DNA from: Chrysomallon squamiferum
Lineage: Eukaryota; Animalia; Mollusca
Length of the DNA stretch: 64,000 nucleotides
Direction of reading: 5' to 3'
NCBI GenBank assembly: GCA_012295275.1
Contig: CM022673.1
Location: 19,034,001 to 19,098,000 of the forward strand
Each line of letters starts with the position of its first letter. The stretch's first letter is position 1. The notes below the pieces were generated by a model that was not told the origin of the DNA, ran no database searches, and saw nothing but the letters and a program-made list of their open reading frames with translations. Both the position numbers and the translations under genes were made by a program. Of the stretch, positions 19,217-48,600 are shown one piece after another.

Positions 19217-19283
19217 AGTCCTCTGGAAAAGTGGTTGCAAATAAAAAATCGTCGATTCAAGTTAACACATGCATCATGTGGGC

Positions 19284-20589: not shown

Positions 20590-23500
20590 TTAAAATGAGC
20601 TTGCTTTGTGTTTTGGTAGAAAGTTGAACTCAGGAGGAACTGGTCCAAGAAACATCTCACTGAAAAAGAAAAAAAAAAGAAAAAATAAAATTATTCCTTT
20701 TCTGAAAACAATGCAATGCTTTAATGAACATATTATTTGAAAAGCAAATGTGAAATCATTAAAATTATTATAGTTATTATATTTTTATTATTATTATTAT
20801 TCATAATTTTATTTCAGCAGAAAAAGTCCTAAAATTACATCTGATGCTCAACACAGTAATTTATTTAGCTTCAGGTTTAGTAATGTGTAACTGACTGAAA
20901 AGTTAACAAATTAACAAAATGCAAATGAAAGATGATAATCACAGTGGTAATTTGATTAAAGAACTAATTAAAGTTTCTCAGTTTAACACTTTACCTCAGT
21001 TTTATCCAGTCACTACAACTATAACTACTCATAAGTGTTTCCAAATCATTTCTACCAACAAATTGAGGAGGACGTTCATTTATTTTTTGTGGCAGTCGCT
21101 CCAGAAGTCCAACTGGAATATATCTTAAAGAAATAAAGTTGGAAATCAGTACATTTCTTTTTGCATTACTTGATAAACATAATCCTGCATCATAAAAATT
21201 TAAATTTTAAAATCTCAGTCACTGGATCAGGTGAAGAATAAATGTTTTTTTACGTCTTATGGCTGATCACTTACAAGAGAGAAAATATATTATAAAATTT
21301 TCAATTTTTTCATATTTTTTCCTGATGTCATCAACTGAGTTGCTTAGAATATCTTTCATTTGGAAAACAATTTTTATAATTAGAGTTCCAACATTTAAGT
21401 ACTAATATTATTCTTTCTATAATCATTTTTTGTATGTTGATGAATAAAAGAAAACTAGTGCAAGACGAATCATGAAATATTGACAAATGTAACATTTACC
21501 TGCAAGTAAAAGACAACCATTCCAGTAGAAAACGTCTTGTGTTCTCCACTCCCTGATAGTCTGAGCCCCAATGTTCCAGTCCAAAATTTGTGTATTCCTT
21601 TAGAATGTCCAGTCTTTCAGAGGCAGAGATATCCCAGTGTCGCCTTTCTTTGATCTCTGTGAATATCCATGGTTTGATTAGAGCTCCTCTATAAAAAAAT
21701 TAATTAAAAAACAACATAACACTCCAAAAAGAAAATGCAAAATCACAAGCTCACATCATTATAATTATTGTAACATTAAGAAATAAAACTCAGCAGAAGT
21801 GCTAGTATGATGAAGTGCTAGTTGAAACACATGATGGTTGATTCCACAGATTAACTCTGACAGAGACAGCTTTGTGTGTCATTTTTATGGTTTTCCCTTG
21901 AATTTAAATAGTCAATGAATCTTCTGGTTTTCAAAAACTAAATATACGTTTGTATAATGATTAACTGTTACCTCATTTGTAAAATATTTTTTAAACAAAG
22001 TCTAAAAACTATTAAATATAATGATTTTAAAATGTTATTTAAAATAAAATTTACATAAAAATTTCAATGACTCATTTCTAATATATATAAAGGCTGACTA
22101 AGTGTTATTTTATTAACTAACCTTCCAATCATAATACCAGACACTCCAGTGTTCTCAAGATGGTTATAGTAGTCTTCGTAAGATAAAATATCTCCACTGC
22201 CTAGGTAAAGCACACAAATTTTTACTTAATTTTGTAAAAATTATTATTTGTTGTAGTATAAATGATCTGACAATATACTTATAAAGCCAATCAAAATAAA
22301 TATTTAAAAAACATAATCTCACAAATTGAATTAAAAATATATTGATGTACAAAGAAATGAAAAATCTGTGTAGGCTAAAAAATACAAAAGCAGTAATTGA
22401 TTTTGCATGGTTTTGAATTCTCAGATTTTTTTATTTATTTGTCAGATCTATCATATATCTGTTTCAAAATTATATGATGCATTTAAAATAAAAGTCCCAC
22501 TTTTGTGTTTTTATTTATCAATTTCTTTTTTATCGACCATGAACTTTCATAACTATTGATATTTAATATTGTCATTACAGACTTTTGCTGCAAGAATTTG
22601 CACAAAATTACCTTCTGTGTATGTCAGTGACACTTTTGTGATAAAAATAAAAGTAGTGATATATGGAAGGCCTGTGGAGGACACATCTGAACTTGGAATG
22701 TATGCCCATCTTGTACAATGTGAAGAAAAGATTATCTGTGTTGTTTTGATAACATTTTCATGTACATTTCTTTTACATGTTTGTTACATTAAAATATAAA
22801 AGGTTAATACACAATGAACAGGCTTATCAGTAAAAAAAATTGTAATTCACAACTGAAAACATCATCTGCTTGTGTGAAAAAACTGATATGTGAATATGCC
22901 AAACCATCAACCTGTTTCCCAATAATCCAGTATGGTAGCTATTTATTAGTTTTCACAACAAAATAAGACATGTACAGAATTTCAGCTACTCTGAGACACC
23001 AGTGAATATCTGCAACATAAGATATTAATATCCATTTCTTTAGCTTAAATAAAAGATCTGTTAATTAATTATAAGAATTTTAAAAGATGTTTACCAAATA
23101 GTGGCATTGGTGCTGCTGCCTTAGAGCACTGATCTATGTACTCCCAGTCAGCCAGACGAGTGTACCGCTGTTCTCTGGATCGTCCATGCAGCTAGTGAAA
23201 CAGAGACAAAAATTATTTAAATAAAATAAAATATTTAACTACAAATGAAAAAGGAAACTGTTAGAAAAGTACACAACTAATCAAATGCATAAAATATTGT
23301 AAACAAAATTGCTGGACTTGATTGAGAAATATTTAAACTTATATTTAAAAATAATAAAAATAAATAAAATTCAGACGAAACATACAGTGGTTAAGGATGT
23401 TCCCCAATCTCTGAGCTTTGGCATCAGCAAATGAGCAGTGTTTTTGTGATGTGAAATTCCTGTTCTCACTTTTACTGTTAAAGGAACATCAAGAACAGAA

Positions 23501-26500
23501 GACATCCCTCTCACTATTTTCTCTAATTTGTTTGGTTTGTCTATCAGGGCTGATCCAGCTCCCTAAATTTAAAAACTGACTATTTCATACAAATGTTCAG
23601 TAAACCTTAAGAAATATCTAATATTAGCATAACATACTAAATGTTTAATAAAAAGACAGTTAATAAAACATATCAGTTTTTTTACTTTAAAGCTAACCTT
23701 CACACATTAAATTACACTGAAACATATGTTTGTTACTAAAACAATTGATAAATAAATATGAATAATTTTTCTTAATTGAGTAGTTGATCAAACTTCCATT
23801 AAAATATTTCAGAATGGTGAAGAAACAATTTTTTTCACAATAATTCTAAATTTTATTTGAAAGCAATTAAAAAATAAACCAATACATTTTTCTAGCAAAC
23901 AGCTCACTTTTTGATATACTATATCTATAGGGCAGCCACAGTTTATATCCAGGAAATCTATTTCTACAGTTTCATTCAAAAGTTGAGCACATTTTGTCAT
24001 AGTATCAGGAAATGCACCACAGATCTGTAGAAATATTTTGTGAAATATCTTTTAGTACTATGTAAAAAAAAGTTGTAACCTGTGAAACATGAATTAAAAA
24101 AAAAGTGATAAATTTTTCTTTTTATTAACATTTAAAGCAAAATGAAAAACATTTTAATCAATGATTATATTTAGTGTCAGTCACACACACACACACCACA
24201 TACACATACTTCTTTGTATCTATATGTAAAAGATATCTTGCTTCAAGGCACCCATCACTCAGCAGCAGTGAAATTTTTCTATCACATTATCACCACATAT
24301 AAAATACACGACTGATATCTAACAAGTATTTATCTAAAAAAATTGGTTTTAGTCATTCATTTACCAAATTGTGAAATATAGCAAATAAAGTGAATGTTTA
24401 CTTCAGTTTGTTTTTTATTTTGTTTGCACAAACAATACTTTGATATCTTGTAACTTAGAAATGATCTCTCTAATCAAGCACTGTACCTGAACACCAAAGA
24501 TGTCTTCTGTTGAATGGCGTTTTATAAGAGACCATTCTGACTGTTTACCCTGCAATAGGTTTGTTGCCATTGCCATTTCTCCACATGTTATATCAGCCCC
24601 AAGTTTCTTGCACATTCTCCTAAAAGGTAGATTACCCACCTAAAAAGAATAAAATGAATGATATCAATTCAGTTTACATTAAATTAATGAAACAACCATT
24701 TTATTACAAGCAATCATCAGAATATGTTACTGCAAGTATATAAATTCAATTATTCTTATTACATTAGATAACAAATAATATCATATAAAAATAATGTATA
24801 CATAAATATGATTTTAAATAATGTTTACAATGTATTCATAAATTTTATGGAAACTTACTGTTGTTAATGGAGCCAAATACAGTTTTTCTGAGAAATTTAT
24901 CTGAAAATGATAAAATATAATTTCCAAAATCATCCATTTTTATAGCCAATTATACATTATACAACTCAGAATTGTTTACTTGTATACATTTTATGATCTT
25001 TGTAAATTACATTCAAATTTTACTGAACTCAAGAAATTTAATATAGCTATGACTAATTGTTTGATAAAATTACTTTTTATCTCTTTCTGGCAGACACAAG
25101 TATTGATTAAATTTAATTAATAACACTCATTTATTTGAAATATCTTAATAGATAGATACGTACAAATTATTAACAAATTCATAAAATAATTAATATTTTT
25201 CTTCTAAATGTAAACAGATTACGGATACTATTTAATTGACAATCAACGAAATATTGAATACAGGGCATATTATAACATCTACAGATATTAATAATTATTA
25301 AACATAACTAAAATACATATTATTAATTACACCCAAAAAAACCTTCATAACAAACCATTTTCTTTTCAGCAGATTTTAATTTGATAACATTTTCATTAGT
25401 GATACACCCTATGTTATGTTCCTCCTCCACGTGGTTGCCATTAGTACTTGTCAAATCTACAGCAGTGCTGACTTCTATCTGGTTCTTTATTTCCTTCCAA
25501 AAACCACTTTGAACTTTCTCATCAACTGTCAGAGATTTAAAACCTTTGGAAATGACAAATTCTGATTTATGAAAATTGTATTTCTTTTTCCACAGCAGTT
25601 TCTGTAAATCTTTCGATAAAGTATTCATCACTTTATCTTTTGATGCCATCTTTTTATACAGTTCCTCATTAACAATGTTTTTAAAATTTTCATCAACATG
25701 ACAGTCAGAAAATCTACATCGAATTCCACAAGGACACTTTCCAAATGTTCTAAATATATGGCATTCATCAGAAATGTTGGGTATCTTAGAGTTTACAAAT
25801 TTGGCGACATCATGTAAGAATTTACATGAGTCACCAAAAGTACATTGTTCTTCTCTGACAATGGCTGGGCACATTTTTAATGAGGCATCTTGATGTTTGT
25901 TCCTAGGCCTGTTTTTATTACATCCTTTCAACTTTTGTTTCTTTGCTAGTGGCTCTCCTTCTTCTGATGGCTGTTTGTGAGGCTTTTCAACTGAAACTAA
26001 ATACCTACAAAAGACATTTAGCAAACATAATAATTCAAACATGATAATGCTTGTTACATTTAATTTTGTAATTAAATATGAAATAAAAAATTATGTTAAC
26101 TCTAAACATTAAAGACTGTATTTACATTTCAGGAATTACTGTATCTATAAGCTTTGTTAAAAATGCACAGACTTTTTCTTCTTTCTTTTCAGTGCAGATG
26201 ATAGTTTGACATATCTGAAATTTTGACTGATTTAACTTAACTGACTTTTACTTAGTACTTAAACCTCTGACTCACATATTTGTGACAATGAATGTTTTGT
26301 CCCACCTACTCCAGCTGAAACATACAGCCTGACTTCTAGATTGTTATCACTGAGAAAGATCAGAGGGTTGATCTTTTTATCTCTGTCCAACATTACATGT
26401 TACAGTTATAATGGAAAAGTTGGAATATTTTCACTCAAATAATTCCACATTTGCAGAAGATGTCCCATCATTAAAATTTACTATTTACAAAAATAGAACT

Positions 26501-26824
26501 GAATGACAATGAAATTCTGTGGCTGCAGATAGTTCATCAGCTTGGAGTGAAGGCTTAACTTGAATTTTAGCTGTACATGTTTATTGCATTTACATTTTTT
26601 GTTTATGAAACAAAGACTAGTATACAATGATACCTATGGCCTACATTCATAGTACTTAATATAAGAACTACTATATAGTTTAATATCAATATTATATATA
26701 CATACTGTTTTTTAATACATGCATAGCCTGACTTCATTTCCTTTGTAGCAGTTTCAGTGATTTTTCTCTTTTTAATATCATCATCAGAGGAGAAAACAGC
26801 AGAAATACAAGTTACAGTGCTCAT
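20590..26824 (-). CDS. DUS3L: tRNA-dihydrouridine(47) synthase, DUS3-like (two CCCH zinc fingers + Dus TIM barrel)
   Basis: Exons: 26824-26706 (ATG), 26004-25356, 24900-24859, 24639-24487, 24024-23908, 23562-23386, 23191-23095, 22200-22122, 21688-21500, 21123-20995, 20659-20590 (TAA). Motifs: [76 protein letters not shown] probable non-coding first exon has its donor near 27521. Confidence 0.96.
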
Positions 26825-28175
26825 GTTTTCAAATTCTTCTGAAAAAGTTAATTACAAAATATTTTTATACATTTTAAATACAGGTAGACATTAAGTCACA
26901 TATATATATGAACCTACCATTTCTGATTATAACAACACTATAGTAAATTGGAAATACTGTTACTTGTAGTTTAGGTATGTCTGCAGATGTTTTACTGAAT
27001 ATTTTGATAGTATTTCTTATTCGGCTGCTAGTTAAAATATAAAAAGATCAATCAAAACTGTTAAAGCTGACTGGATTGTTAAACATAATAGTTTTTTCCT
27101 ATTATATATATATAGATATATATATTAGTAAGTAAGTAAATAAATAAATAAATGGTTGACTCCAATAAACTGGTTTCATTAAAATAAAAGTAACAAATAT
27201 CATTTTCACCGGCTTCATGGAAGCGCTAGATCTAAACTGCAAAACTGCTTAGTGATTATATAACAATAAATATTTACAACTCATTATACTTTATAGATCG
27301 TGGATTTTTATTTTATTATTATATATATATTTTTTAATTGATAATATTAATCATAATGGGACGACAAAAAAATTGCCCATCCTGCCGATACTACTACGAT
27401 TACCACTCTTGATGTACCATGTACTGATTTAGGTTAACCCGTATATAACGTAAAGCATCTTTATAGGTACATTCCGGTAAATTAAATTATTGTATCGTTC
27501 AGTTATGAAACAACAATTTACCTCAGAAATGTACTAAAATAAGAAATATACTGAAATAAAAATCGAGAACAATTCCAACAGCTGTGAAATCTGCGAACGA
27601 TACTGCTAGCGAACACTTTATCGTCGGTCAGGTCTTTCAATCGGGAGCGTGAAAGTCGGAACAGGTCCAGTAACTTCGTGAATATTCATGTGAGCAATGC
27701 TATTTAAAGCCTATTGCTTTAGTTCGACTATTATTCGAATAACGGAAAAGATAGATTTTTGTTAGTCTGTTTCTTATCAACTTTAAGCCTTTTTTTTTTT
27801 ATTCGAAATACTTATTATAGGATGTAGGATGAAACCGGAATGAATTCAACAAAAATGCGCAATTATTTTAGAACCATAGTTATGATAGTATGATACTGAT
27901 AGTGGTGGCGCAGTCTTCATTAACACCATTTTTACTTATTATGAATATATTTTAATTAAGTATGACATAAGGGTTCTGCAATACATTCCCAGACTAATAT
28001 ACATACATATACATAGATAAATGAATAGAAATAATTTGTTTGGAGTAGTTCATTGCAGCATTTATTATTAGTAGCTGACGGCAGTGATGCATATATCCGG
28101 CATATCTTATTTGAATCAACCTTTCAAAGTCAGTAATGGCTATTAGCTGATTTAAATGACTTGTGTCAACCATAT

Positions 28176-28185
28176 AATAATAATA

Positions 28186-28230
<45 letters not shown>
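28176..28230. repeat. (AAT)n microsatellite
   Basis: Direct reading. Confidence 0.95.
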
Positions 28231-28298
28231 CAATAGCATGGTCAATTTTGAATTTATCTTAGGTGATTCACATAGGTGACCTGAAATTTATTCATATA

Positions 28299-29162
28299 CA
28301 GTATTCCCTCGCTATTCGCGGGGGTTACGTTCTTTACCCCCCCGCGAATAGCGAAAAACCGCGAATATTGGATGCAGTTTTAAAACGTCTATTATGAGAT
28401 TATATACGGTACTAAATGCTTCCCAAACACTTTCTAAAGACACTCTTACTCATTAATACAGTAATAATGTAGTAATATTGCATGCAGTTATGTATTTCAC
28501 TAATGTAGTAATGATAATGTAAACACAATTTTGTACTGAAACAATATTTTAATCAGAAAGAAACGTAAGTGCAGGAGGACAGTAACACCGCATAGCATAG
28601 TTACCCATACAGTATTACTGTACCGTAAAGTCATTTTCTATGCGTACAACAGAATTGACAGAAAGTGGAACAAATTTAAAGGCAAACAGACAGATAAATA
28701 CAGTACGCACAGTTCAGGTAATAATAATACAATTCAGTAATAATATGCAATTAAAAACATTATTAATACACGGTCACCAAAAATATGCACTGTACATACA
28801 GTGTATGCATTTATAAAAAAATACGTACTGTATTGCAATAATAATTGAAAAAATTTGATATTGTTTGTGCTGTCACCAATAATGAATGATAATAAAATGA
28901 TGATGAAATTTGCAGTGCCATACGATGATGATGATAACACTAATGTACAGTATGGCACAGCTTAGCTGCTGCTTTACAGCACTTCAGGTAATTATTCCTA
29001 CTCTTCAGGCACTTAAGTCTCTATGACCTACAAAAACCCGGTTTACCGAGCATTTGTTTTTATGACGTTATGACGCTCGCCTGGTATACCAGCACACGAT
29101 GCGAATGGGTTAAGAGCCTAACCCGCGAATATGCGGGGCCGCGAATAGGTGAGGGTATACTG
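28299..29162. mobile_element. Non-autonomous pogo/Tigger-like (Tc1-mariner superfamily) MITE, about 860 bp
   Basis: Left TIR CAGTATTCCCTCGCTATTCGCGG; right TIR reverse complement CAGTATACCCTCACCTATTCGCGG. TA flanks both ends (28297-98, 29163-64), with subterminal CCGCGAATA repeats. Confidence 0.88.
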
Positions 29163-29656
29163 TATCACTGTAATTTGTCATATAAGAAAATGATGTTCAC
29201 AACATAATTTCTTCAGTTAAGCCAAATTTTTATTATTATTATTATTAGTTCAGTGAATACAGTTAATAAGACACATAGAAGACAGATGATGTCAAAAGCA
29301 TGTTTTTATAAAGCTGGTGATGAGTAAACTAAAAATTCAAACATACATTCAAATTCTTAATACAGTCATTAATAATTCATACATTAAATTTACTATTTAA
29401 TTGACATATATGGAAAGTACATGCAATTCAGTACTTGATATTAGAACTCATGATTATATGTGATTCTGCAACAATGAAATCATCACAGCTCACATGAGAT
29501 GATTTCTGACAAACACTAAAAATATGTATTCATAGTTGTTTTGTTTTCTGTACATAAAAACAGAGTAAAATACCAAGCTCATATGACTACCCCAATAATA
29601 CAGCTGGTATTACAGTGACATGGTGTGTTTACACCCTAGTGATCTAATATCTAGAT

Positions 29657-30911
29657 GGGTCATTCCATGTCAAATCACCCCCCCCCCAAAAAAAAACCCC
29701 AAAAACCCGACTGTCTCAGATTTTTTTATGAAACTTGGTATACTTGTTGACTGGGATCCCACAACACCAAATCTGAAATTTTAGGCCAATCGGACCAGTG
29801 GTGTGGGGGATATGACCCACCGAATTTTGAGATTTTTGGAAAAAATGAGCGTGACCACCAACCTTTGAACCCTCATATCTCAGGAACTACTGGGCCAATC
29901 TTCATAAAATTGGTATTGTTGAAACGGCAATATGACAAGAATTTCAAATTTGGGGGTCACTGACTTTTTGACCTTTGTTAGGACCTTGAAATTGACACTG
30001 TCGATTATGTGACCTTGAGATGACCTTTATTGAAATTTAATCTCCCACATGTAAACTAAAACATAGAAAAGTTTCCTGGGTGTAATATTTTTTGTTTAGC
30101 CACAGTATAGATTTAAAAAATGCATATCCATGAAAATAACACCTTTCCTGCCATTAACATCTGATTAACTAAAACCTGAATGATCAATTCTGGATACTAG
30201 GAATCACCATCTCTCTTGATCACCGAGTAAGACACTGTAGGCCTACATGTATGCATAAAGTTCACATACATTTGAGAGAACTATGTGTTTCTGATGCTTA
30301 ACCTTCTCACTATCTTTGTTTCAAATGCTCACTGTATCCTTCATTCCTAGACACATTCTACTGTTCTCATCACTTTCATAAAATTGGACTATTTCCTCCT
30401 TCAATTCATTTGACAGAACTTTCCCTTGTTTCTTATCACAGAGGGATAGAATCCCTTTCTTTTTCTTCACAGCTCGGCTTTTTTCACAAGGTAATTTGTT
30501 GTTTCAAATTCATTCATTGTCCTTTCAATGGAGATTAAATTTCAATAAAGGTCATCTCAAGGTCACATGATTCACAGTGTCAATTTCAAGGTCATAACAA
30601 AGGTCAAACGGTCAGTGACCCCCAATAATGACAGATTTGGAATCCTTGTCATATTGTCTTTTCAACAATACCAATTTTATGAAGATTGGCCCAGTAGTTT
30701 CTGAGATTATGAGGGTTCAAAGGTTGGTGGTCACGCTCATTTTTGCCAAAAATCTCAAAATTCTTTGGGCCATATCTCCCACACCACTGGTCCGATAGGC
30801 CTAAATTTCAGATTTGGTGCTATAGGATCCCAGTCAACAAGCATACCAAGTTTCATAAAAATCTGAGACGGTCAGGTTTAACCTATTGTGTGATTTGACA
30901 CGGAATGACCC
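29657..30911 (-). mobile_element. Internally deleted DNA transposon with about 385-bp TIRs and a 4-bp TSD, Sola2-like
   Basis: Termini GGGTCATTCC...GGAATGACCC with AGAT duplicated (29653-56, 30912-15). TIRs at 29657-30045 and 30530-30911. The minus-strand core (about 30243-30532) encodes a broken transposase fragment: EFETTNYLVKKA/RAVKKKKGILSLCDKKQGKVLSNELKEEIVQFYESDENSRMCLGMKDTVSI*. GRG termini plus a 4-bp TSD fit Sola2. Confidence 0.85.
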
Positions 30912-30944
30912 AGATCAGCTATGAAGTATGTGATAATACATTTA

Positions 30945-31325
30945 TACACGATCTTTTGTAAATTGCCCCTGAGCAAGGATCAGGTACCTCAGTGATACAG
31001 TATATACTATACTGTATTAAATATATTAATACATAATCTCTGTACTACAACACACTGAATAAGATAACTCAGTATAGTATCTACTAAAATTCTAAATATT
31101 TTAATAAATGATTTTGTATATTATCCATGTACAACATACTGAATAAAATACCTCAGTGATACTGTATCTTCTGAAATATTAAATATATTAAAACATGATC
31201 TTTGTATATTATCTCTGATCAACACATTGAATAAGGTATCTCAGTGATACTCTATCTACTATAACTATTAAATATATTATCTGTACAACAAGCAGATAAG
31301 ATACATCAATGATATACTATTTACC
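30945..31325. repeat. Diverged minisatellite, units of about 65-90 bp, 4-5 copies
   Basis: The core ctcagtgatac...attaaatatatt...caaca..ctgaataa recurs at about 30988, 31068, 31152, 31240 and 31306. Confidence 0.8.
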
Positions 31326-32689
31326 CACTGATATGTTCTGTTTTCCTTTTATGATATATATTCATACTTGATCTTTTTCAGATCTCAGTCATGTGTACCA
31401 TGATAATGTTTTAGGAACATCAGTATCACCCTCCTCCAGCACGAGAAAAGATAAATATTGCTTCAAGTAGTTTAAAATATACAATATACAAACATAAGTT
31501 AAATTCATGCAGACATGAAACAATGTTTAAACAGCAAATAATGATTGTAACAAATAAGATGCATCTAGCTACTCCATGTAACATATTCTTGAGATTTTAT
31601 AGATGCATACTCCCTGGAAATGAACTAATGAATGAAGATAAATCAGCTCAATCACATAAAGGTTTGTAAATTTAGAATCTTAATGTGTTGTAAAGATCAA
31701 AACCAGTTGCAAAATAAAGATAGGTCTTTCTAATTATAAATTCAGCATGTAAAAAAAAAGGTTAGAAGTAAAAAATCAGAAAGTGTAGAAAAGAATTACA
31801 ATAAATTATCTACAATGAAAGTTGGTTTAAATGTATAATTATGATATGTATTATTATAATTTTAGATGATGTAATTTCTGTTTGCATTGTGTAATTTTGT
31901 AAACAAGTATTATGTCTTCTTCTGAATACTAGATATAGAAACAAATGCAAATCATAATTTAATAGTGTTTGTCATTTAAATGCTCATCTCATGACTGTAT
32001 AAATAATATTATCTCCTGTATGCGTCTTCCAAAACATCTACTGGACAAGAAATGAGATTATAATGGATTTGATATGGAAAAGTAGTTGGTACTTGCACTT
32101 GAAAACAGCCACATCTCAATGCCCAACCCCATTTCTATTACAATAGATAAATACACCAGTAAAAAATAAATAATAATAAATCAATTAAATTGATTGCTGA
32201 ACTATGCTTGATGTGATAATAATCATTAAAATTTATTTTATATTAATATATTAGCTTTTTCATTATATTTTATATCCAACTATAATTCATAAGTTTTAAA
32301 ATTTAGCATTTTTGATAATTTTATTACTCTTATTAATTAATTTCAAAACAAACACAATACAAACAATACATTCATATATCATAATCGTTCAAACTTCCCA
32401 AATGTTTCGTCATTCGGGTGACTGAATATGAAGTTGCTGTGGCATAATAAAACTCATGGAGGGCATTGTTAGAGTCTTCTATATCATTATGTAATTTATC
32501 AATTTCACTTCTGTCTGCTTTAGTGGTAATGCTTCATTCATTCTCGGAAGCTATCACCAGCAATTGCTCGGTTGTGTTAATCACTTAGCTAAGTGATGCG
32601 ATCAGCAGGTTCTCGATTTGCCAAAAAATCACAAATGTAATTTTCGAGATAATATAAAATTTAAAAATATGTTTTCATCGCTGCTGACG

Positions 32690-33162
32690 CCACAGATGTC
32701 ACATGATTTAAAGGAAGAGATTGGGGTAAAGTGTTTCAGTCATAGAAAGATTGGACTGGATGCGATTACAGAAGAAAGCCTACTGGAACTGATTTGTTGT
32801 CAGCAAAGGAGAAGAATACGATATTTCGACAGAAGATTTAGGAGATTTATAACAACATGTGAATGCAGAGTGAAAGGAGAAGATGAATCGTATTGTGTTT
32901 TGAAAAAACTAAACATCAAGCAATTTCTTATGAATGGTAATTCTTTGAGTGAAATGGACCATGACGTGGAGTGAAGTGTCATTACGGGGAGTTTGAAGGA
33001 AGCAGTCAAATCTTATAATTAAATATTTTAAGAAAACACGAAAACTCACAGCCTAGTCCGTCTGTGATGGGTGACTGTGAAACAATGCGCCATTGTTGTC
33101 ACGGTCAAAACATCGTTGGCTTCAGCTAAATTCACTTGGCGAATAAACAAAAAACTTTACTG
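32690..33162 (+). mobile_element. Degraded pogo/Tigger transposase C-terminal relic with a possible right TIR
   Basis: Broken frames give IGLDAITEESLLELI, ISTEDLGDL and EMDHDVE*SVITGSLKEAVKSY, resembling Tigger C-termini (DPxxERS...CY). The region ends in ggcgaataaacaaaaaactttactg|TA, a CAGT-type TIR. Confidence 0.5.
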
Positions 33163-34045
33163 TACATTTTCTGTGATAAAATCGGGTAACATTTTATTAT
33201 TTGTTATTTAATACTATTATTAGCAACCATTTATGATAGCACACTTTTATAGAAATAAGTGTAGGCCCTATAGCATAAACGCACAACAACAAAAAGTATA
33301 ATAAATTCATTTTGCGCTGATTTTGTTTGCGCTCCTAATTCTGGGAACAAACATCGATGGTGAAACCAGGATAGTTTTAACTGGAAAATATTTTTAAAAG
33401 ATAGAATATACTCAAGTAATGTTTATAAAACACACACACACAGTAATTTAAATAATAATAATAATAATAAACAAATGTACTTGTTATCAGACTTGGATTT
33501 TATTTATTTATTTATTTATTTTTAATTAAAATATAAAAATATTGGAACAAAAGTTAAATCTGTGTCAATCTGCAGTGTCTACATGACTGTAAATATGGCA
33601 AAGAGCAAGAGAGAAGGTGACAAATTTTGAATCATATACTATGCAATAACCACATCTTGTATTCTAACAATTTTTTTTTTTTTTTAAATTTTTTTAACCT
33701 CATAAATGGTATTTGAATTTAAAGCAGTTAATATAACGAAAGTGCATTACCTGTCAAAAGACAAAAACCCAAGGTGATATAATGACTGAAGCTATCTGAC
33801 AATGAAAGTACATGTATCAGCTGACAGGAAATACATAGATCCATTACTATACATCCAGCACAAAATTGGTCAGGTTCTTTAATAATCTGATTTGACGGAT
33901 ATGTGACTTTAGCTCTTGCAATAAGCATATCTACCGTTTTGATGCGGTTAACTGATGTGAAGTCAGCTAGGTTTTCTAATAGGAGAGATGAGATGCATCA
34001 AAAGTAGTTAATATTTTATCAGAAGAAAAGTGGAAAAAAAAAAAA

Positions 34046-34212
34046 ATAATAAAAAAATTATGCAACAACAAAACAACAACAAACTACAAAAAATATATAT
34101 ATGTATACAGCCCCCCGCAAATAATAATAATAAAAATTATGCAACAACAAAACAACAACAAACTACAAATATAAAAAAATATACAGCCCCCCCCCGTAAA
34201 TAATAATAAAAA
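34046..34212. repeat. Two-copy tandem duplication of about 80 bp
   Basis: aaattatgcaacaacaaaacaacaacaaactacaaa...atacagcccccc occurs twice. Confidence 0.9.
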
Positions 34213-34608
34213 CATCTGACAGTTTATTGTCAAATATTAAATATTGTTTGTTTGTTTATTTTTGTTTATTTTATCTTATTTTATTTTTTTATTTATTTTT
34301 TTATTTTATTATTATTATTATTACGTAAAATTACGCAAAAATTAAAAGATGAACGATTGATAATACAGGTAGTATTAAAATGACTTGAAAATTCTTTTGT
34401 AAACAATTACACGTTTGATTTCTATTTTACTTTTTATTTAGATTATATCATGTACATGATCAAATAGCTTTTTACAAAACCTTTTTTTTAATTATATTAT
34501 ATATAAACAATTATTTTCACACACAGAGAAAGTGTCTTATTAGGCCTAATTATTATGTTTACGTATTAAGCGAACATTTAAATCTGCCATTTCTCTTTGA
34601 TACGCGTG

Positions 34609-35332
34609 TTAGCCAGCCACTAACACTGGCTTTAAGTAAGGTACAACAGTAATTTTGTGATGATGAGTTGTCTTGTGACTACAGCAACATTCACTAACGC
34701 AGCTACAGCAGCAACAACTATTATGTATATGATGCTCTCCATGGTGTCCATGACTGCGACTGCTGTGATGTTCATTATGATGGTGTTCGTAGTGGCTACT
34801 AACTACAGCGACAGAAGTTACAGCTACTGAAATTTACCAAAATTTAATGCATATACACGTTTTTCTTATAATAAAATAGTTATAACAAAATAACAAGACC
34901 CAGTCAATGCACAGAATTAAATTTCGCCAGTGATTCATTTTTTGATACAAAAGTTAATTTTCAAAGTCTAGATGTCTTATAATAGTCTGTCAGCTTTAAC
35001 CTTTTTGTGTTGCTGATGTAGCTAATTTCCTCTCGTCGTCAGTTTGTCTGTTACTTGTGTGTGTGTGTGTGTGTGTGTGTGCGTTGCGAACGCTGGCATG
35101 CTGCGGATTATTCAATAGTCTAACATTAAAAAAAAATTAAAAAATTAAAAATGAAACTCTGTAAAAGCCTGAAATTTAATATCTATTTAGTAATGTTTAG
35201 AAAAAATTATCAACAACAGTAATAATAATAATTATTATTAATAAAACTGCTGTATAACTAAGGAATGTCAAATACCAGTTAATTTCATAAAAACTTACCT
35301 ATGAAAAAAGCAATAAACAAGTACCATTTCAT
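34609..35332 (-). CDS. Novel 83-aa secreted His/Cys-rich peptide precursor (two exons)
   Basis: Exon 1 35332-35299 ATG...ATAG|gtaagt; exon 2 34826-34609 after aaatttcag|, phase 1 matched. Protein: MKWYLFIAFFIVAVTSVAVVSS-HYEHHHNEHHSSRSHGHHGEHHIHNSCCCCSCVSECCCSHKTTHHHKITVVPYLKPVLVAG*. The hydrophobic signal peptide is assembled across the intron. TATA box and initiator lie upstream, AATAAA about 170 nt downstream. Confidence 0.85.
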
Positions 35333-35360
35333 TTATAAGCGATTAGAAACTTGTTTTTCT

Positions 35361-35400
35361 GACTGATTTTAAACAACACTAGCTTTTGTATGATTTTATA
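35361..35400 (-). promoter_or_regulatory. TATA box + initiator core promoter of the His/Cys-rich peptide gene
   Basis: Minus-strand TATAAAA at 35400-35394 and TCAGTC initiator at 35366-35361, about 30 nt upstream of the ATG. The TATA-Inr spacing is slightly long. Confidence 0.55.
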
Positions 35401-36025: not shown

Positions 36026-38612
36026 TTATAGTAGTATACAAGGATTCTGTGATTTTTTGCTTGCAGACATCATAGCAATACGAGTAGCAGTTTCAAATAC
36101 ATCGCGCACACCGTCCTGTGTTTTTGCTGAGCATGCCAAAAAAGCACTAAAATGCAGACTGGTTGCCATCTTGCTTCCATCAGATCCAGTTAACGGGGCT
36201 TTGCCTTGTTTTGAGAGGTTGGCAATCACGCGTTTGTCATTGATCAAGTCACTTTTGTTTCCAACTAAGATGATAGGTACTTTTGGCAGATAGTGAACAA
36301 TTTCCGGTTTCCATTTCTCAGCTACATTCTGCAGACTGTCTGGAGAATCAAAGGCGAAACAGAGCAGAATCACATGGCTGTTTTTATAGGACAGAGGACG
36401 GAGCCTGTCATAATCTTCTTGTCCTGCAGTGTCCCATAGTTCAAGTTCAACCTGCAAGTTAATACAACGGAGAGAGGCTATTTTAAAACAAAAGATAACT
36501 GTTTTTATTATTATTATTATTATTATTATTTATTTTTTTTTCGTTTATTATGAAGATGATAATGAGGATTATTATTGTTTTTTCTTACTTCTAAATTTGC
36601 CAGGAGTCCGAACTCTATTTAGCAAGACCATATTTACTAATAATAACATTTTTAAATATTCACCAAAACAATCCTTTCCAAGCAATCAACAGTATATCTG
36701 TATATCCTAAATAATACCCACTATTTAGAAATATGAAATAATTCACCAACATATATGATTAAAACACACACACACTCTGCGAAAACTGGCCTTTGACTAA
36801 TCCCGATTTTTTCTGTAAACCGGTATCAGAGCCTTTTTGTTCCACTTACGAATATTTGTTTCACCCATTCTGGAATTAATTTCATGCGTAGTTCTGTATT
36901 CTGTTTGTGAAAATACTATATACAGTGTGTGTCAATTGAAACTGACTAAATACCACTGCAAACAGAGATTCACAAAAGCACATTTATAATTGTAGATAGG
37001 TGGATAAATAATTGAGGGATATATTTGTCTTGAAAATTGGGATATTCTTCTCTTTTTTTTTTAAATTAAAGTGAAAAACATTCATCCCTAAATCCATTTA
37101 TCTTTGTTAATTATTTGAAAGCATGTTGCATTGTGACCAATCCTTCAATTAAAGTGCTACAATAACACAATTTCTGTTGTTTTTTTTTGTCAAAATGTCA
37201 GGACCCGAGTCATTTGTTTGAACCTGAAGTGTCAAAATAAGTCCATAGACGAGACCCTTTATTTTGATATACATCAGTGATTATGATGATGAGGATTAAC
37301 AAGGTTCTAACCTATGAGACTGAAGAAAAATATCTTGAGTATTACTTTTTTTTTAAATCAGAAAAAAACACGTTACAAGGCAGCCGAGTTTTATTCAGTA
37401 AAAAATAGATTCCTACATTATTGTTACTCTGTTGAGAACGTGGTCAAATAGTCCCGTAAAGCCAACATTCTACAATCTGTTCATGATGATGAGTTACTAG
37501 GAGGATATTTTTCCTGGGAGAAAATATGGCAGAAGTTAAGGAACCATTTTTTTCTAGAACGGCATGAGTAATGATTGTAAGAACTATTGCACACATTAAC
37601 GATGCAACAAATTAGCCAAGACAACACCCATTGGGTTAACACCTGCACCTTTAGATTAGTATTAGTGTGTTGAGACCTAAGTTACTTAACCCATTTAGAT
37701 TTAATATCAAAAGCAGAAGTCTGCATAAATACGTATGGCGCACATCTTCCTGTTTTATTCAGTTCGACGTAATGCCAGAGCGACCTAAAAACCGGCAGCG
37801 TATCGAACTTTCTAAAGCCAAGCTATTGTCATGTATACAACGATGTTCTGTTTATAATAAAATAGGTTCTTTAATAAAATACTGTATATAGAACATGCCA
37901 TAAGTGATAAAATAATTTAACAAAACATTTTATCCTTAAGTTTGTTTACGTATACTTGAAGCCTACTTTCTTGAGTATTGGACCTCTACTTACATTGGTT
38001 TGTTAACTGTAATCTTTACTCTACATGTAATTATGTCAGTTAATTTAATTTGTTTACAAGTTTAAAATAACTGTGTTTAATGTCAAACTGTAACAACAAT
38101 AGTGAAACAATTCATTTGACGGAAATATCTGAAGTCCGTTGACCGATCGCAGAATGTGTTCCGAGATCGTTGGACAAAATGAAGGCAAAATGTATCGATA
38201 CTTTCAATGTCCAAGTGAGGTATTTAAAAAAAGAAAAGAAAAAAGAGGGCGACTTAGTCTTAGCCGTGGATAACAGTTAGTACAAACGATCTATTATTTT
38301 GCCCATTTTGCCCCTCGCTTGAATTCTGGCAATGCAGTTTAAAATTAAAGATAGGCAATATTTGATATTTTAGTGAGTGTTACCGACAATTGTACGAAAC
38401 TAATATCTCGACAGAGAATAACCACCGACAAATTCAAAAACCTATATGGACTGACGATATACACATTGACCCATCGACCGAACTGTCTTACAATAATAAA
38501 ACAAATTAAATCTTTTGCTGCTGCTTCCGAAAGCAGATGTTTGTCACCGATGTTAAACATGGAGGCCATGACAGAAGAGTTTGCTTTGGAGAGAAATATA
38601 AAAAAAAAGAAA

Positions 38613-38644
<32 letters not shown>

Positions 38645-38864
38645 TAATAATAAAAAAATAAAAATAATAATAATAAATAAAAGTAAAGATGAAAAAAGAA
38701 GAAGAAAATGAAATCGTCTATCACAGTTTGTTTCTCAGATGAGACGTTTAACAATAATATTTGCAATAAACCGTATTCCAATTTCATATCATTTTGATCT
38801 TTATAAACCGGCACTCTGTCTAAAGTGAATTCGGTTTTGACAGAGTCCACTGTATATATACATA

Positions 38865-38899
<35 letters not shown>

Positions 38900-39091
38900 C
38901 TGTACATGTGTTGTGTGTGTGAATGAGAATCATACCTTTTTGCCATCAACTTCAATAGTAGTAATACTGTTTTCGAATATTGTGGGTACGTACACCTCGG
39001 GAAAATCCTGATTACAAAACACAGTCAATAAACATGTTTTACCAGACCCGCCATCTCCAACAATCACAAGTTTAAACCTCTCGGTGGCCAT
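36026..39091 (-). CDS. RhoA-like small GTPase, divergent paralogue (193 aa, CAAX = CILL)
   Basis: Exons 39091-38936 ([52 protein letters not shown]) and 36451-36026 ([22 protein letters not shown]...GNKSD...CSAK...CILL*). All G boxes and the Rho insert are present. Confidence 0.93.
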
Positions 39092-39536
39092 TAGTAGTGT
39101 TCACTATATCAAAGTGACATTTGATACTTGATTCAGATTACTGGACTTATCTGCATAACCAGTACATCCGATGTAATATCGGCTACTGTATATATATATA
39201 TCCGTAATCTGAAACACTTAATATAACATGTTTAATAAAATTAATCAGTAAAAAATTCAAGCGACTGGAAATTAAGTTCATTTTGCTACATTTAATTTTA
39301 CAGACACATACATATAAACAATTTTATGATTTCAAGTCAGATAGCTTTTTTTTACCCTCAAGTATATTTTATAATACTTAAAATATTTTAATGCACCTTT
39401 TACTATTCTCCTCGCAGAACAATATATACTACTTATAATCCAAAATATTTATTTTTCTGTTAAACTACTGATGTTTGGTTGTTTCTTTCCTGTTTTAAAA
39501 TACAACTGATTTATTTATTTGTTAATTAATTAATTA

Positions 39537-42070: not shown

Positions 42071-42159
42071 AATATCATAACACAAACCCGATTATACGGA
42101 AAAAGTTATAAATTTATCTAGTTTGATGAAATTATACATTAAATCACCAGCTTAAAATA

Positions 42160-44350
42160 ATGATTAAGCTATTTTCCCTGAAACAACAAAAGAAGGATGG
42201 AGAGAGTGCACCAGATAGAGGAAAACGATCGTCTGCTGCCCAGCTGCGGATCCAGAAAGGTCACCACAAAAATAGTCATGACCAAATCTTGACTTGTTAA
42301 AATTTATCAGTGATGTATTCTCACTATTTGTGATATTAGATGATTAGTTTCTTCTCCAACATTTAACATAAAATACATTAATTTTTTATGTACAATTTTT
42401 ATCATCTAGTTGGCTCTCGTGGATAGCTTTTTAGATTTTTACGAAAATTAACTAATAATATAATAATAGTAATACTTATACTAATATTACTATACTGTAT
42501 AGAGTATAGACTATAGTACTGACCAGGCATAGGCCAGCTTTTTCGAGAAGCGGGCCACATGAACCATGGCTCATCCTCAGGCGGGCCGCAGGTACCAATT
42601 TACAGCATAAATGGAACAATTAGGCGCGCCATTCAGAAAGCCGCGCGGGCCGCTGTTTGCCATGACTGATTGACTGGTGTAGACTATAGTCTATGCTCTG
42701 TAGTTTTAGTAATAACTTTTAGCAGTCGTAGTCTACTTTAGTTCTTGACTCTAGTCTCTAGTCCACCACTTTCATTGATTTGTCGGTACATAATATATGG
42801 ATTCAAAACAAAACCACATAACACAAATGCCCACTGATTAATGAAAATTATGGGGGGAGGTGGATGTACTAAGAAATATTTCTTATTTTAGCAATCGCAC
42901 TTCAGAAGAATGATTTTGTTAAATTGAAATTTAGTTCTGTTGATTGCTGTTGTTCTTATGAATACCCTAATGATACACTGCAAATGTATGACCACTGGTA
43001 GATGGCTTCCTTTAAAATACAATAATCATGAAAATCATTTAATTACTGCTTATAATCCATCTGTCACATAATGCATAATCTGACTGATGTTTTTAAATTA
43101 TATTATCAATAATCAATCACACATTTTACCCAGTCTTGAAAAATAGCCATCGAGATAAGAAAGTTATCTATCAATATGTGACATATCTGATGTTCAGTGC
43201 AAAGTGCTTAGCCAGTAACAAACAGAAGACCATCGCAAACATTGATACTCAAAATGTAATCAGCTTTTTGTACCCCCTTCCTACCAGTTTTTCTATAGAA
43301 TATGCAACAAAATTAACACCAAAACTATGAATGGTAATATCAATAGGCAACATAATTCTTTTTATCAACATCGATAAATAATCCTGTGAATTACATTTTC
43401 TGTTGGTTGTATATTGGTGATCATAAATTTGTGTTTGATTAAAAAAGAAGGCTTTGAGTTTTTTCCTTTAGATTAGTTTGTTTAATATGAGGGAAGTGTG
43501 GTTTTTGTCAACTTCTGCTTTTGAATGTATATGGTTATGTCCAGTTACAGTAATGTAGTATATATGATATGTACATTTTATTGACCCCTTGGAGGAAGAG
43601 ATTGTTATGTGTTATTGATGTTAATAAATGTTATTATGATAAAACTTTCTGAGTTTTATTGTTTTAAAATTGAGGATAATTAACAAATTTATTTTAAAAA
43701 ACCAAGGAATAATTAGACATAAATATATATGTAAACTAAAAATTGTAAAATTTACATTAAAGTCATCAGTGATGATACTTCTTTTTCTATAATCTTGTTT
43801 CTGTCCTTTTAGCAATAATTGATTTATGCTGCTAAACTAGTGATGGTAATTTTTAGCCTTTTCTTTGCCTGTTCACTGAACAATAGTAAGTCATATCTTG
43901 CATCAGATCATTAGTTTATTACAAATCTTTATTTTTTAAATTAATCTTGGACTTGCATGTTTATCCACAGTCATTAAATATTTCAAACATACCTATTGTA
44001 ATAACATTTGTTGTTGTTGTTTAATTAAAAGATCTTATTTCAGATATTACTGAACTGAATCTCCCAAAGACTTGTCAAGTTGATTTTCCAGATCCAGATG
44101 ATTTACTAAACTTCAAACTCAATATCTGTCCAGATGAGGTGAATCCTTTTTTTTTATTCAGTTTTAGAAATTGTTTTAAACATTATTACTATCAGTCATT
44201 TCATTTATAATGATCAATTCTGTAACATTTATAACAGTTGTGAACTGTCCCAGGGAAAAACTCTGGATTGACTCCATGACATAACATAAAGGTATTTACA
44301 TTTAATCTATAAATAGATTAATGCTGATGCAGGTACTTCTTTTATATGAA

Positions 44351-44385
<35 letters not shown>

Positions 44386-45667
44386 GAAGTTGCAAACAAT
44401 ACCAAAATGTTATGTTTAATTTTTTTTTATAGACTTATATGTTATGAATGCATATTTTTTACAGTTATGATCACAGCAGATGAAGCTTTTTCAGATTTAA
44501 TACTGTTCTGAAATAATCATTAAAACTCACACTTATTTATACCTTTTCTTTTTCAGGGTTTTTACAGAGGTGGTAGATTTGTTTTTAGTTTCAAAGTAGG
44601 ACAAGGTTATCCCCATGATCCGCCAAAAGTTAAGTGTGAAACAATGGTTTATCATCCTAACATAGATTTAGAAGGAAATGTTTGCCTTAACATTCTCAGG
44701 TAATGTATATTGATTTTATTTTATTAAGTAACAGATATGAAGAATCTTGCACAAACAACTTACTTATTAATAGGTTTTGTCATATTTATTTTTTTAGAAA
44801 TGTATTATAAAACATTTTACATGTTTCTAAAAATGTTCTAAAATAACAGCTAGGTTTAACTATAAATATGACATTATCAAGTTCACTTTGTTAAGCCTAT
44901 TATATTGTAATATAAATGTTTGTATGTAATGTTAGATAAGAAATTGAAGTTTAATAAATATCTCAAAATACATTTTAGAAACTTACAAGTTCAAAATTAT
45001 TTCTTATAATGGATTCATTGAACGACTTTTTAATTTGTTTTTGTGGCCTAACGTAGCAATACACATTTTTGTGCATTATATACCATTTATCATTATTTTA
45101 CATGATAAATACTTTTACAGAGAAGACTGGAAGCCTGTTCTTACTATAAATTCAATAGTATATGGATTACAGTACTTGTTTTTGGTAATTATGTTTTTGA
45201 GTCTTTATCATTTTGACAATGTAAAGTGCAAAAGACATCAAATTTGAAATAGTGCATTATTACATAATTTAAAAAAAAAAAATTATTTCTTTTATGCTAC
45301 AGAGTTACCATTAACTGAATAAAAAAATACTTTTTAAATAAGCTGCAATGATTTAGGTGTGACAATAAAAACCTCCTCAGTAATTTCTTCTTTTTTAAAA
45401 ATCTATTTCAGACAGTGAGTTGTTATACAGTGTATGGCTGTAGATAGCAACACATTTTTCAGCTTATTTATAAGTTAATAATAATAATTTATTGGTCAGT
45501 TAATGAAAAGCATTTTTTGTGTTTAGGAGCCTAATCCAGAAGACCCTCTTAATAAAGAAGCAGCCGAAGTTTTACAGACAAATCGTCGTCTCTTTGAACA
45601 GAATGTTTCCAAATCAATGCGTGGTGGACACATAGGTTCTGTTTTTTTTGAAAGGTGCTTAAAGTGA
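42160..45667 (+). CDS. UBE2M: NEDD8-conjugating enzyme Ubc12 (180 aa)
   Basis: Exons 42160-42259, 44044-44138, 44557-44699, 45121-45184, 45527-45667. Begins [12 protein letters not shown], contains [11 protein letters not shown] and the catalytic [21 protein letters not shown], and ends FERCLK*. Confidence 0.98.
42524..42668. mobile_element. Short hAT/Charlie-like MITE in UBE2M intron 1
   Basis: GC-rich 145-bp island with CAGGCAT...ATGACTG ends and three GCGGGCC repeats typical of hAT-Charlie MITEs. The TSD is degenerate (gtatagac/gtgtagac nearby). Confidence 0.6.
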
Positions 45668-48600
45668 TTCGATAAAATGGAAACAATAGATAGAGTACTA
45701 AGATTACCACAGACTACCCAGCTAAATATTTAAAGACCTGTTTCCTGTTTCTGTGCGTATTGCTTCAACATGTGTGATAAACTCATAAAACAAAATTGGG
45801 TTTGTTAAAACCTGATGAGCTGTTATAAAAGAAAAGCTCTCATTTAGACCTGACATCTTCTGTTTGAAGCATTAGACATTTCAGAGAACTGGATTACATT
45901 TGTCAGTTCATGTTTACAGTGCATTCTAGGCATTCTGATTTATTACAATGTTAAAGAGATAATCTTGTTCACAGTAACTTTCATTAACTAATGTCCTATT
46001 TGAAGGCAAAAATGTTTGGACCACAGTATAAAAATCAGGCTTTAATTTTCCATTGTAGGACTTGAAATAAATATTGAAGCTTCTAATAATAATTTTGAAA
46101 AAAAAATCAACTCCTTATTATTTATGTATTACAACATGTGATGTTAATAATTAACTATTTTAAATGCTGTTTGAAAATATTGTCATGCTATATTGTTCCT
46201 AAATTGAAAACGAAAATACAGATTTAGTTTAATCTCATAAGTCAAGCAACAATACTTATTTTGTGTAATTTTAGTTTTGACCTTGCATTTTAATATAAAA
46301 TGTAGGCTGACAATGTATTTTAAACAAATTTATCTTCTTTTGAAACGTGTGTAAGAGAGAGAGATATAGAAATGAAACAAAAATAAATGATTATACATAA
46401 TTTAAAATCATTTATGTTTAAATTAACACTTTTCTCAAGTAAATTGTTATTAAGATGTAATATTATAATGTTTAATGTGTTGCTTGTGTGTAGACCCTTT
46501 GAGATAAGTTACAAGCTGTGGATCTGCATCTGTGAATTACAGATTGCTTCAAGAAATTATGTCTGCAAGATGAAGAGACTTGTTTGATCTTTAATTCTAA
46601 CAAACTTTATTTATTATCTGTTGTTGGATTTATTTTCATCAGAATCAACTATTTGTTTTCATCTTTGATTGGCTTCAGATTTAGTTATTGAAGTATTAAA
46701 ATTACAGATTTGATTGATTGATTGATTGATTTATTTTAATATAAAAAATAACTACTTGCAGAAATAATAGATTGTTTTTCAAGAATTAAATAAATGGATT
46801 ATTTAAGTATAACAAATACATAGTTTAATTTTATCATTCTGAAGCATGCTTTTCTTTCTATTTTTTTTCTTTCTTTTCTGTAAAATGGATCCATATTATA
46901 TCTGTGTCTTTGTCATCAACTTGAATTAATAAAATTATGATAAAATTACAATTTTTATGACTGTTGTATGGTATCACTAAATTAGATTTTAAAAGTGATA
47001 AAAATGTAGCTGTATAAAACTTATCCAGGTCAGTGAAATTGTTATGGGTGGCACTCAAGCTCTTCGTAAGAAACAATTTCATTAGGAATGAAATTTGTGA
47101 TCTATTAAAAAATAATAATAATTGATTATTATGTACATGTGTGTGTGTATTATTTTTTAATGTTAATTTTATTTTATTTAGTAAACATTACAACATCATT
47201 TTTTTTAATCATGATGTAATGATGTTTTTTTATTATTTTTTTTTTGGGGGATAGGGAGTTCTTAATTACATAGTCTTGATATTAAGAATTTGTTTCTTTA
47301 AATTAAAGTGTATCTGTATCAGTAGGAACAGTCTAAACCAGTTCTTTATACTTTTCAGTAATATTAGTTTGTTGACCTGTCATGATTAATAATAAGTTGT
47401 AACAATTATATAACACTGCTAGTTAAAAAAAGCATTTCAGTGTGATGGTGACATCATCACATAAGTGTTAGTGACAGCAAGTAGAAACGATACAAACAAC
47501 AACAAAATATTGGTAGTCCCTCTAATAAATAATAATACTTAAAACAACACAGATTATAAAAGTACACTTTAAAATTTATTTCCATAACTGGATCAAATAA
47601 ATAAAGAAAATATGACAACTCTAACAAATAAAACTTTCTTTCCTTATATATTTGAAATAAAAGTTCAAACATACTATTAACATGAAAAGGATAATCAGCA
47701 TCAAGGAAATACCTGTCATCATTGCTCAGCTGAGTAAGAGAACAGTAGTTCAATAATAAATACAGTGATTATTATTTTTATTATTAATACATACACATAG
47801 TACAAGGCATTCACCTAGTACTCAGTTTGTTTAATAATAAAAATAACAAAATGACAACAATAAATTTTATGGTCTATTTCTACAAAAGAAATAATTTTAA
47901 CTAGTAAATATATTAGTACATTCAGATAATAAACTGATAATATACATACCTATAAACTTCTTATTTTATGTTATAAAAGTACATATTATACATCAATTCT
48001 GATATGCTCTCCTGCTTTTTCATTGGCATTACCTTTCTTCTGTCTGACTAAATCCTACCTACCTGTTTGCTCTATTTCAGACATTGATACCTACTCCAGT
48101 TTTTGATTACTTAGCCAAATAACTGTAGACCATAAGTTTACAACTTGAACATGACAGTTCATTCAGAATATGAACTTTAGTGTTTATCATTATCAAATTC
48201 ATAAAGTAAATGTCCCAACTTACCTTCCCAAATTGAGTGTTCATCAGCTTCATAGACAGCATCAGTTACAGCAGCACACTCAGATGGAATATAGGCTAAT
48301 TTTGACTATACCTATCCTGTTGTGATGTACAGATCTGTTAGTCAGTTTCCTTAAGAAATTCTTACCAAGGTCTTTAGTTCTCCACATTGGCTAATGACTT
48401 TCATTTCTAATATATGTAATACTTGTTTTGATTCTTGTAGTACCCCTAGGGTACTGACGTTGGGGGAATCTCTCTCTCTGTTTCTATAGCAATCCCTAGC
48501 AAAATGTCCAGGGTTTTTGCATCTAAAGAAAACAGGGAAGTTGAACGTAATGGAGAACTAGTCTGGTGAATATATTGCATCATACTTCCAAAATATCAGA

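Follow-up and report, generated by a model that had tools for sequence, protein, structure and literature searches.

A probable two-exon gene for a predicted secreted His/Cys-rich peptide without a recognised family in Chrysomallon squamiferum

Between DUS3L and a divergent Rho gene of Chrysomallon squamiferum, and within no other recognised gene, two short exons would encode a small secreted peptide rich in histidine and cysteine. Is this locus a real gene, and what would its product do? We analysed the 64,000-nt stretch of DNA that contains it (hereafter the window). The initial annotation had proposed a two-exon gene for a signal-bearing His/Cys-rich peptide of no recognised family; this core stands as probable, whereas the weight placed on its TATA, Inr and AATAAA signals does not. 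We consider it quite probable that the locus is a real gene, and its intact two-exon frame is likely to be that of a lineage-specific one, as judged from the sequence. For the product we tentatively prefer, at somewhat less than even confidence, a secreted peptide peculiar to this lineage: once released into seawater, its His arms would bind Zn, Cu or Fe, and its Cys cluster would join chains by cross-links into an extracellular matrix.

Gene model and predicted product

Every coordinate and residue count of the proposed two-exon gene was reproduced to the base. The features of the locus, as read from the sequence, are given below.

35394..35400, minus strand: TATA-like box (TATAAA from 35400), a hexamer found in 13% of 95-nt stretches of the window
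35361..35366, minus strand: Inr-like TCAGTC
35332, minus strand: start codon ATG
35299..35332, minus strand: coding exon 1, 34 nt, encoding Met-Lys and the first half of the hydrophobic signal region, with a perfect AG/GTAAGT donor
34827..35298, minus strand: phase-1 intron, 472 nt, GTAAGT...TTTCAG, 28% GC, containing a CA microsatellite
34609..34826, minus strand: coding exon 2, 218 nt including TAA
34823 (82 aa) and 34802 (75 aa), minus strand: alternative in-frame acceptors within the exon 2 model
34795..34826, minus strand: end of the predicted signal peptide (residues 12-22), where 9-residue hydropathy peaks at 3.27
34723..34794, minus strand: His-rich arm, residues 23-46, 12 His plus Glu, Ser and Gly
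34681..34716, minus strand: Cys core C4-x-C-x3-C3, residues 49-60, 8 Cys per 12 residues
34657..34677, minus strand: second His patch, residues 62-68, 4 His
34609..34656, minus strand: Val/Pro/Tyr/Lys tail with a terminal Gly, then TAA, hydropathy maximum 1.31
34433..34438, minus strand: first AATAAA past the stop, 170 nt away, a signal found in 43% of 200-nt stretches of the window

The spliced frame gives 83 aa, of which residues 23-83 form the predicted mature chain (~6.9 kDa) with 16 His, 8 Cys and a C-terminal Gly. His and Cys account for 24 of its 61 residues (40%): 26% are His and 13% Cys (8 of 61; 8 of 83 in the whole product), and three are Gly (5%). The Cys residues occupy positions 49-52, 54 and 58-60 of the 83-aa product, and the His residues of the mature chain form seven HH, four HxH and six HxxxH pairs. 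Its computed charge is +12 at pH 5.5 and -0.3 at pH 7.5. Dibasic sites and repeated peptide units are absent from the product, which has a single Arg and three isolated Lys. The hydrophobic segment at the N-terminus is split across both exons and peaks at a hydropathy of 3.27, in agreement with the signal peptide proposed earlier; the predicted cleavage site was placed by eye after residue 18, 21 or 22. AlphaFold, run on the single sequence, gave no confident fold and no helix (pLDDT 55.8, pTM 0.24). A disordered chain would be expected to lack a confident fold, but a model built from one sequence carries little weight as evidence. Two other readings of the product were rejected: a membrane or GPI anchor in the C-terminal tail, because the hydropathy is too weak (maximum 1.31), and a selenoprotein-P-like protein, because there is no in-frame TGA.

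Regarding the processing signals, the donor is as perfect as had been claimed (AG/GTAAGT), and the window has 5 AGGTAAGT in all, this one included. The acceptor is modest, with a score of 0.0 against -1.0 to 10.5 for ten acceptors of conserved genes scored by leave-one-out. It ranks fourth among 31 nearby AGs, and the three that score higher would lead to products of 13-24 aa. The TATA, Inr and AATAAA flanks are all present, but the support drawn from them had been overstated, since such signals are common by background. The distance from the start of the TATA box to the A of the Inr is 36 nt, a long spacing; 30-31 is usual. Models that combine a TATA box, an ATG, a donor, a signal-like segment and 60 aa arise in 25 of 300 shuffled windows; in the real window, a TATA-bearing model of this type occurs at the peptide locus only, and one other model lacks the TATA box. 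Position -3 of the main ATG is a T. A second ATG (35327-35325, minus strand) lies 5 nt downstream in a better purine context and would give an 18-aa, Cys-containing, out-of-frame peptide over the same junction. The metal-response motif TGCRCNC does not occur between 33334 and 37588, and the whole window holds 11 copies against 12.7 expected. Rfam gave no match within 27700-35100.

Coding character and read evidence

The DNA of exon 2 argues for a real coding exon and not a decayed repeat. Its frame is open throughout from acceptor to stop and contains 16 CAY and no CAR, 8 TGY and no TGR, and 9 AGY and no AGR codons; a pyrimidine ends all 33 of the 33 CAN, TGN and AGN codons, and does so in one frame only. 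His is written as CAT ten times and CAC six times, and Cys as TGT and TGC four times each. In 20,000 dinucleotide shuffles, the count of His plus Cys never rose above 22 in any of the six frames, against 24 in exon 2. Among the one-transition neighbours of CAT, TGT and AGT, 12 of 14 changes are silent changes at the third position (p = 8e-5, post hoc test). A decaying repeat would spread its changes over the three codon positions; those of exon 2 are mostly silent, which favours coding. A looser test on neighbour codons is weak, with 19 of 40 changes at position 3 and 18 at position 1 (p = 0.044). The GC content of exon 2 is 42%, compared with 24-29% in the flanks, and the exon starts with 11 apolar or small residues that would complete the signal peptide (p = 0.0025, residue shuffle). 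The locus has no microsatellite made purely of CAT or TGC. The centres of the HxH motifs are His, Gly, Ile and His, and none is Thr. De novo His-Thr-His ORFs derived from (CA)n are described in the accessible text of PMC13756084 as having a CAC bias and Thr at the HxH centres; exon 2 does not match this pattern, as CAT exceeds CAC and no HxH centre is Thr.

Runs X2 (depth 53, 34331-35044) and X1 (34734-35044) carry DNA letters identical to the window. This letter-for-letter match indicates that the frame is not an assembly error, with X2 possibly being the assembly's own source. Of the RNA runs searched, only one contained the stretch, at 0.31 of its words. The RNA contig there is 350 nt long, has a depth of 5.4 and is unspliced: it begins in the intron and crosses the acceptor to end in exon 2, with neither a joint nor a loose end at 34826; RNA contigs were compared over 32500-35118, and exon 1 and the donor lie outside this stretch. 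Intergenic contigs in X1 and X4 have depths of 2.4-3.4, near that of the acceptor-spanning contig, which is DNA or pre-mRNA and not spliced message. Two of the three RNA runs compared, X3 and X4, gave no contig on the gene; this is weak evidence, because contigs drop rare forms. The contig result gives expression no support and counts weakly against high expression in those samples. Separately, a 21-nt match at two places in X2 (depth 7) was put down to low-complexity chance.

Genomic neighbourhood and search for relatives

The recognised genes of the window are as follows; the names of the housekeeping neighbours are partly assigned by sequence resemblance.

1-8500, plus strand: SH3 protein gene, housekeeping, of F-BAR type by resemblance
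12036-19261, minus strand: NOM1-like gene (MA3), housekeeping
20593-27680, minus strand: DUS3L, exons placed by tblastn, probable ATG near 26824
36026..36451, minus strand: final exon of the divergent Rho gene that lies upstream, 119 of 141 residues (84%) identical to Gigantopelta aegis Rho1
42130-45664, plus strand: UBE2M-like ubiquitin-conjugating enzyme gene, housekeeping
55700-64000, minus strand: UBR-type ligase gene, housekeeping

The divergent Rho GTPase has two exons (36026-39100, minus strand) and reaches at most about 62% with canonical Rho1/RhoA among the matches listed. The other matches to its last exon are a G. aegis paralogue at 67%, one further protein at 84% and, among the 120 listed of 3,516, the rest at 62% or below. 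From these matches, it looks like a neomphalid-specific Rho duplicate. Taken alone, the Rho match points to a neomphalid vent snail other than G. aegis as the likely host, with Chrysomallon one candidate. The repeat motifs given for the neighbours of the Rho1 gene CsqKR_Scaf55_26.44 in the accessible part of PMC7142155 are absent from the window, which leaves that gene without a link to this locus. A protein search with DUS3L gave 3 matches from 897 candidates, the best from Patella at 37% and none from Gigantopelta, in a search mode that may crowd out relatives. The GC content of the window is 28.1%; the available sections of the genome papers give 34.5% for Chrysomallon squamiferum (PMC7736800) and 37.2% for G. 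aegis (PMC7895826). For Rhynchopelta, too, there is a genome (PMC13768707, accessible part).

Several other elements were observed in the window. An 89-codon open frame at 33731-33997 (minus strand) contains a CxxC-x7-CxxC stretch and has no Pfam match; from an AG near 33985, exon 1 could join it in phase to give a second signal-bearing product, possibly by chance. Contigs of low depth from RNA runs X1 and X4 cover a 125-codon open frame at 32597-32974 (plus strand), which also has no Pfam match; it may be what remains of a transposon, or DNA background. At 33047-33092 (minus strand), a GTGAGT donor lies ~45 nt beyond an ATGGCG, and together they could mark the first exon of a transcript not yet recognised. 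Finally, a ~1.1-kb element at 29723-30861, with inverted arms of ~320 nt and 92-94% complementarity, resembles a non-autonomous DNA transposon, and a zinc-knuckle open frame at 48354-48557 (minus strand) is probably a retroelement gag remnant.

The peptide gene has no paralogue within the 64-kb window; structural peptides are often clustered. With exon 2 alone (71 aa) as the query of the homology searches, no homologue, family or fold was found in the collections searched, which bears out the earlier claim of an unrecognised family. A word-seeded search of 5.8 billion proteins (lengths 39-125 only) yielded two candidates, neither of which was accepted, and an orthologue was not found although the database searched includes G. 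aegis proteins. Pfam and the PDB sequences gave no match to exon 2, NCBIfam gave only E values of 7.4 and 9.4, and Atlas gave no usable match. None of 596 pattern matches in metagenome contigs and none of 600 in prokaryote genomes was accepted, a Rho-based scan for syntenic metagenome contigs yielded 0 of 599, and Foldseek, queried with the low-confidence model, returned nothing. The lone phmmer match among 1.84 billion proteins (P0006, E 4e-5) was rejected as a 668-aa tandem repeat whose score is the sum of ten copies.

In the literature, four peptide motifs had no occurrence in full texts, and topic searches turned up no such peptide. The same motifs are absent from the readable scleritome supplements of PMC11871041, whose tables hold mostly accession numbers and not sequences, and the peptide could be among the many unnamed shell proteins in those tables; the readable supplements of PMC7142155 likewise gave no match. 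Hpn is an example, in the accessible text of PMC4671568, of a short composition-biased gene missed by annotation. Since the query was exon 2 alone and short biased genes often go unannotated, uniqueness is not proven. None of the collections searched yielded a match to the predicted architecture of His arms plus a dense Cys core. Secreted peptides that are rich in His and bind metals are already known, and what appears new here is their combination with such a core.

Proposed function and rival explanations

We compared the peptide with four known systems, each described here from the accessible text of one paper. The Nereis jaw protein NVJP-1, the Glycera protein MTP and the squid beak HBPs are likewise secreted and His-rich, with a predicted assembly triggered by pH or metal, and the His content is close (26% here and 27% in NVJP). 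However, those proteins contain 20-50% Gly with GGH/GH or GHGXY repeats, compared with 5% Gly and no such repeats in the peptide, and NVJPs are 32-40 kDa, whereas the peptide is 7 kDa with an 8-Cys core and has no sequence match to them (PMC9999432). A His/Gly jaw or beak protein is ruled out by the 3 Gly in 61 residues. Helicobacter Hpn and Hpn-2 are similar in their ~60 aa, His runs and vicinal Cys, and in being easily overlooked by annotation; Hpn is bacterial, acts in cytoplasmic nickel trafficking and has 28 His and two CC pairs (PMC4671568), whereas the peptide has a predicted signal peptide, an intron, 16 His and the C4-x-C-x3-C3 core. A homologue of Hpn was rejected, as neither the protein searches, the prokaryote genomes nor NCBIfam gave a match. 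Mollusc metallothioneins are also small with clustered Cys, and one caenogastropod module places His beside Cys; they are intracellular, with 15-30% Cys and mostly a CxC-rich beta-1 domain, of which the peptide has none (PMC7826182). The beta-1, beta-3 and gamma Cys spacings and the H3-4C4 module HxHHHx2Cx3Cx6-9Cx0-1C taken from that source are absent, there being no HxHHH, and a metallothionein was rejected on the predicted signal peptide, the 13% Cys and the lack of a Pfam match. The tick peptides hebraein and microplusin and the tunicate clavanins are secreted, His-rich and pH-dependent, and microplusin chelates copper (PMC5198042). These are helical, and the two tick peptides are defined by a helical fold with disulfides and a His cluster at the terminus; the low-confidence model of the peptide shows no helix, and no sequence or fold match to them was found. 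The peptide may still act like metallothionein, Hpn or the jaw and beak proteins.

The preferred reading, a secreted metal-binding matrix peptide, would proceed as follows. The open frame and the splice signals present in the sequence give the predicted 83-aa precursor, which would be spliced and expressed in some gland or epithelium and, as its hydropathy predicts, would enter the ER and lose its signal. In acidic secretory granules, protonated His would make the chain cationic (+12 at pH 5.5) and keep it soluble. In seawater, the computed charge is about neutral (-0.3 at pH 7.5), and the His imidazoles would be free to coordinate metals, a pH switch that we infer from Nereis jaw and squid beak proteins. 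His would then bind Zn, Cu or Fe between chains. Eight Cys within twelve residues are unlikely to be all paired within one chain; we therefore propose disulfides between chains at the C4-x-C-x3-C3 core or, where the water is sulfidic, sites in which its thiolates hold metal. The resulting metal-loaded network may harden a matrix, trap vent metals outside cells, or both, and the candidate matrices are mucus, shell coat, operculum, radula or scale. The vent-snail host makes a metal-handling role more plausible, without proving it. In the accessible sections of the sources, seawater pH alters the structure of recombinant NVJP-1, which forms assemblies with Zn (PMC9999432), and peltospirid shells use many lineage-specific proteins (PMC11871041). 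Points that would favour a matrix peptide are the open frame with its read-supported letters, splice signals, composition, silent variation, GC contrast, split signal, anchorless tail, pH-dependent charge, His pairs, lack of a confident fold and vent-snail host; points against it are that the only RNA contig on the gene is unspliced, that the acceptor is modest, that the main ATG has a T at -3 and a second ATG close behind it, that no orthologue and, in the window, no paralogue was found, that there are no Gly-rich repeats, and that the DUS3L search gave no Gigantopelta protein.

The alternatives bear on both the gene and the product. An inactive locus, whether a copy that is silent or died recently, a proto-gene, or a His/Cys-biased tract that happens to be joined to an ATG and donor upstream of it, is unlikely, yet the strongest of these rivals. 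It would account for the unspliced RNA contig and for the two of three RNA runs with no contig on the gene, although contigs drop rare forms and their absence is weak evidence; similar architecture in 25 of 300 shuffled windows, the modest acceptor and the failure to find homologues in the databases searched also point this way. Against it stand the unbroken frame from acceptor to stop, the pyrimidine ending of 33 of 33 CAN, TGN and AGN codons in a single frame, the lack of a local microsatellite of CAT or TGC units alone, and HxH centres without Thr with CAT exceeding CAC, unlike the (CA)n-derived ORFs in the accessible text of PMC13756084. If the gene is active, a soluble secreted scavenger, with reduced Cys thiolates and His that bind Cu, Zn, Cd or Ni for detoxification in haemolymph or mucus and with no structural role, is rather unlikely. 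The vent habitat and the 24 His or Cys among 61 residues suit this alternative, but it leaves the hydrophobic tail without explanation, and no TGCRCNC lies between 33334 and 37588 (11 in the window against 12.7 expected). The ER oxidises thiols, which also counts against it. On its side, limpet metallothioneins have gamma domains that are rich in CC and take up four Cd (PMC7826182, accessible text).

Two further alternatives concern other kinds of peptide. A pH-activated, metal-withholding antimicrobial, possibly amidated at the Gly, would manage symbionts or surface bacteria as tick microplusin, hebraein and tunicate clavanins do, for which the accessible part of PMC5198042 describes His-dependent copper chelation and low-pH activity. 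The predicted product is small, secreted and cationic at acid pH; however, the chain is neutral at seawater pH, its low-confidence model (pLDDT 55.8) is without a helix, and Pfam and structure searches gave no match. Its Cys residues are also clustered and not spaced, whereas those of tick antimicrobial peptides are spaced. We consider this role quite improbable. An amidated signalling peptide or neuropeptide precursor is the least credible alternative: the predicted signal peptide and the C-terminal Gly-stop fit it, a Gly donor being necessary but far from sufficient, whereas dibasic cleavage sites and repeated units are absent and the single Arg and three Lys are isolated.

A more specific form of the matrix peptide concerns the armour of Chrysomallon. 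The peptide would be a secreted carrier of sulfur and metal, in which the Cys residues hold persulfide or thiolate sulfur in the scale or shell-coat matrix while the His arms capture iron, nucleating iron sulfide nanoparticles. In the scales, deposited sulfur reacts with incoming iron (PMC7142155, accessible part). According to the available text of the scleritome paper, the scales are built mostly with old co-opted genes, the sulfur columns are probably framed by Pif-like chitin-binding proteins, and spectra were searched against gene models (PMC11871041). We regard this role as very unlikely, because it requires the right species, tissue and chemistry together, and because old co-opted genes predominate in the scales.

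The water that vent snails inhabit is rich in metals and sulfide, and little is known of the molecules by which sulfur and metals are deposited in their organic hard parts. The 61-residue chain is cheap to synthesise and would allow a direct test of extracellular metal capture. If the peptide is unexpressed, or a generic mucus peptide, it would be one more orphan among the many lineage-specific secreted proteins of molluscs. If the armour role is true, it would represent a class of secreted His/Cys chelators that has been overlooked by proteomics against gene models.
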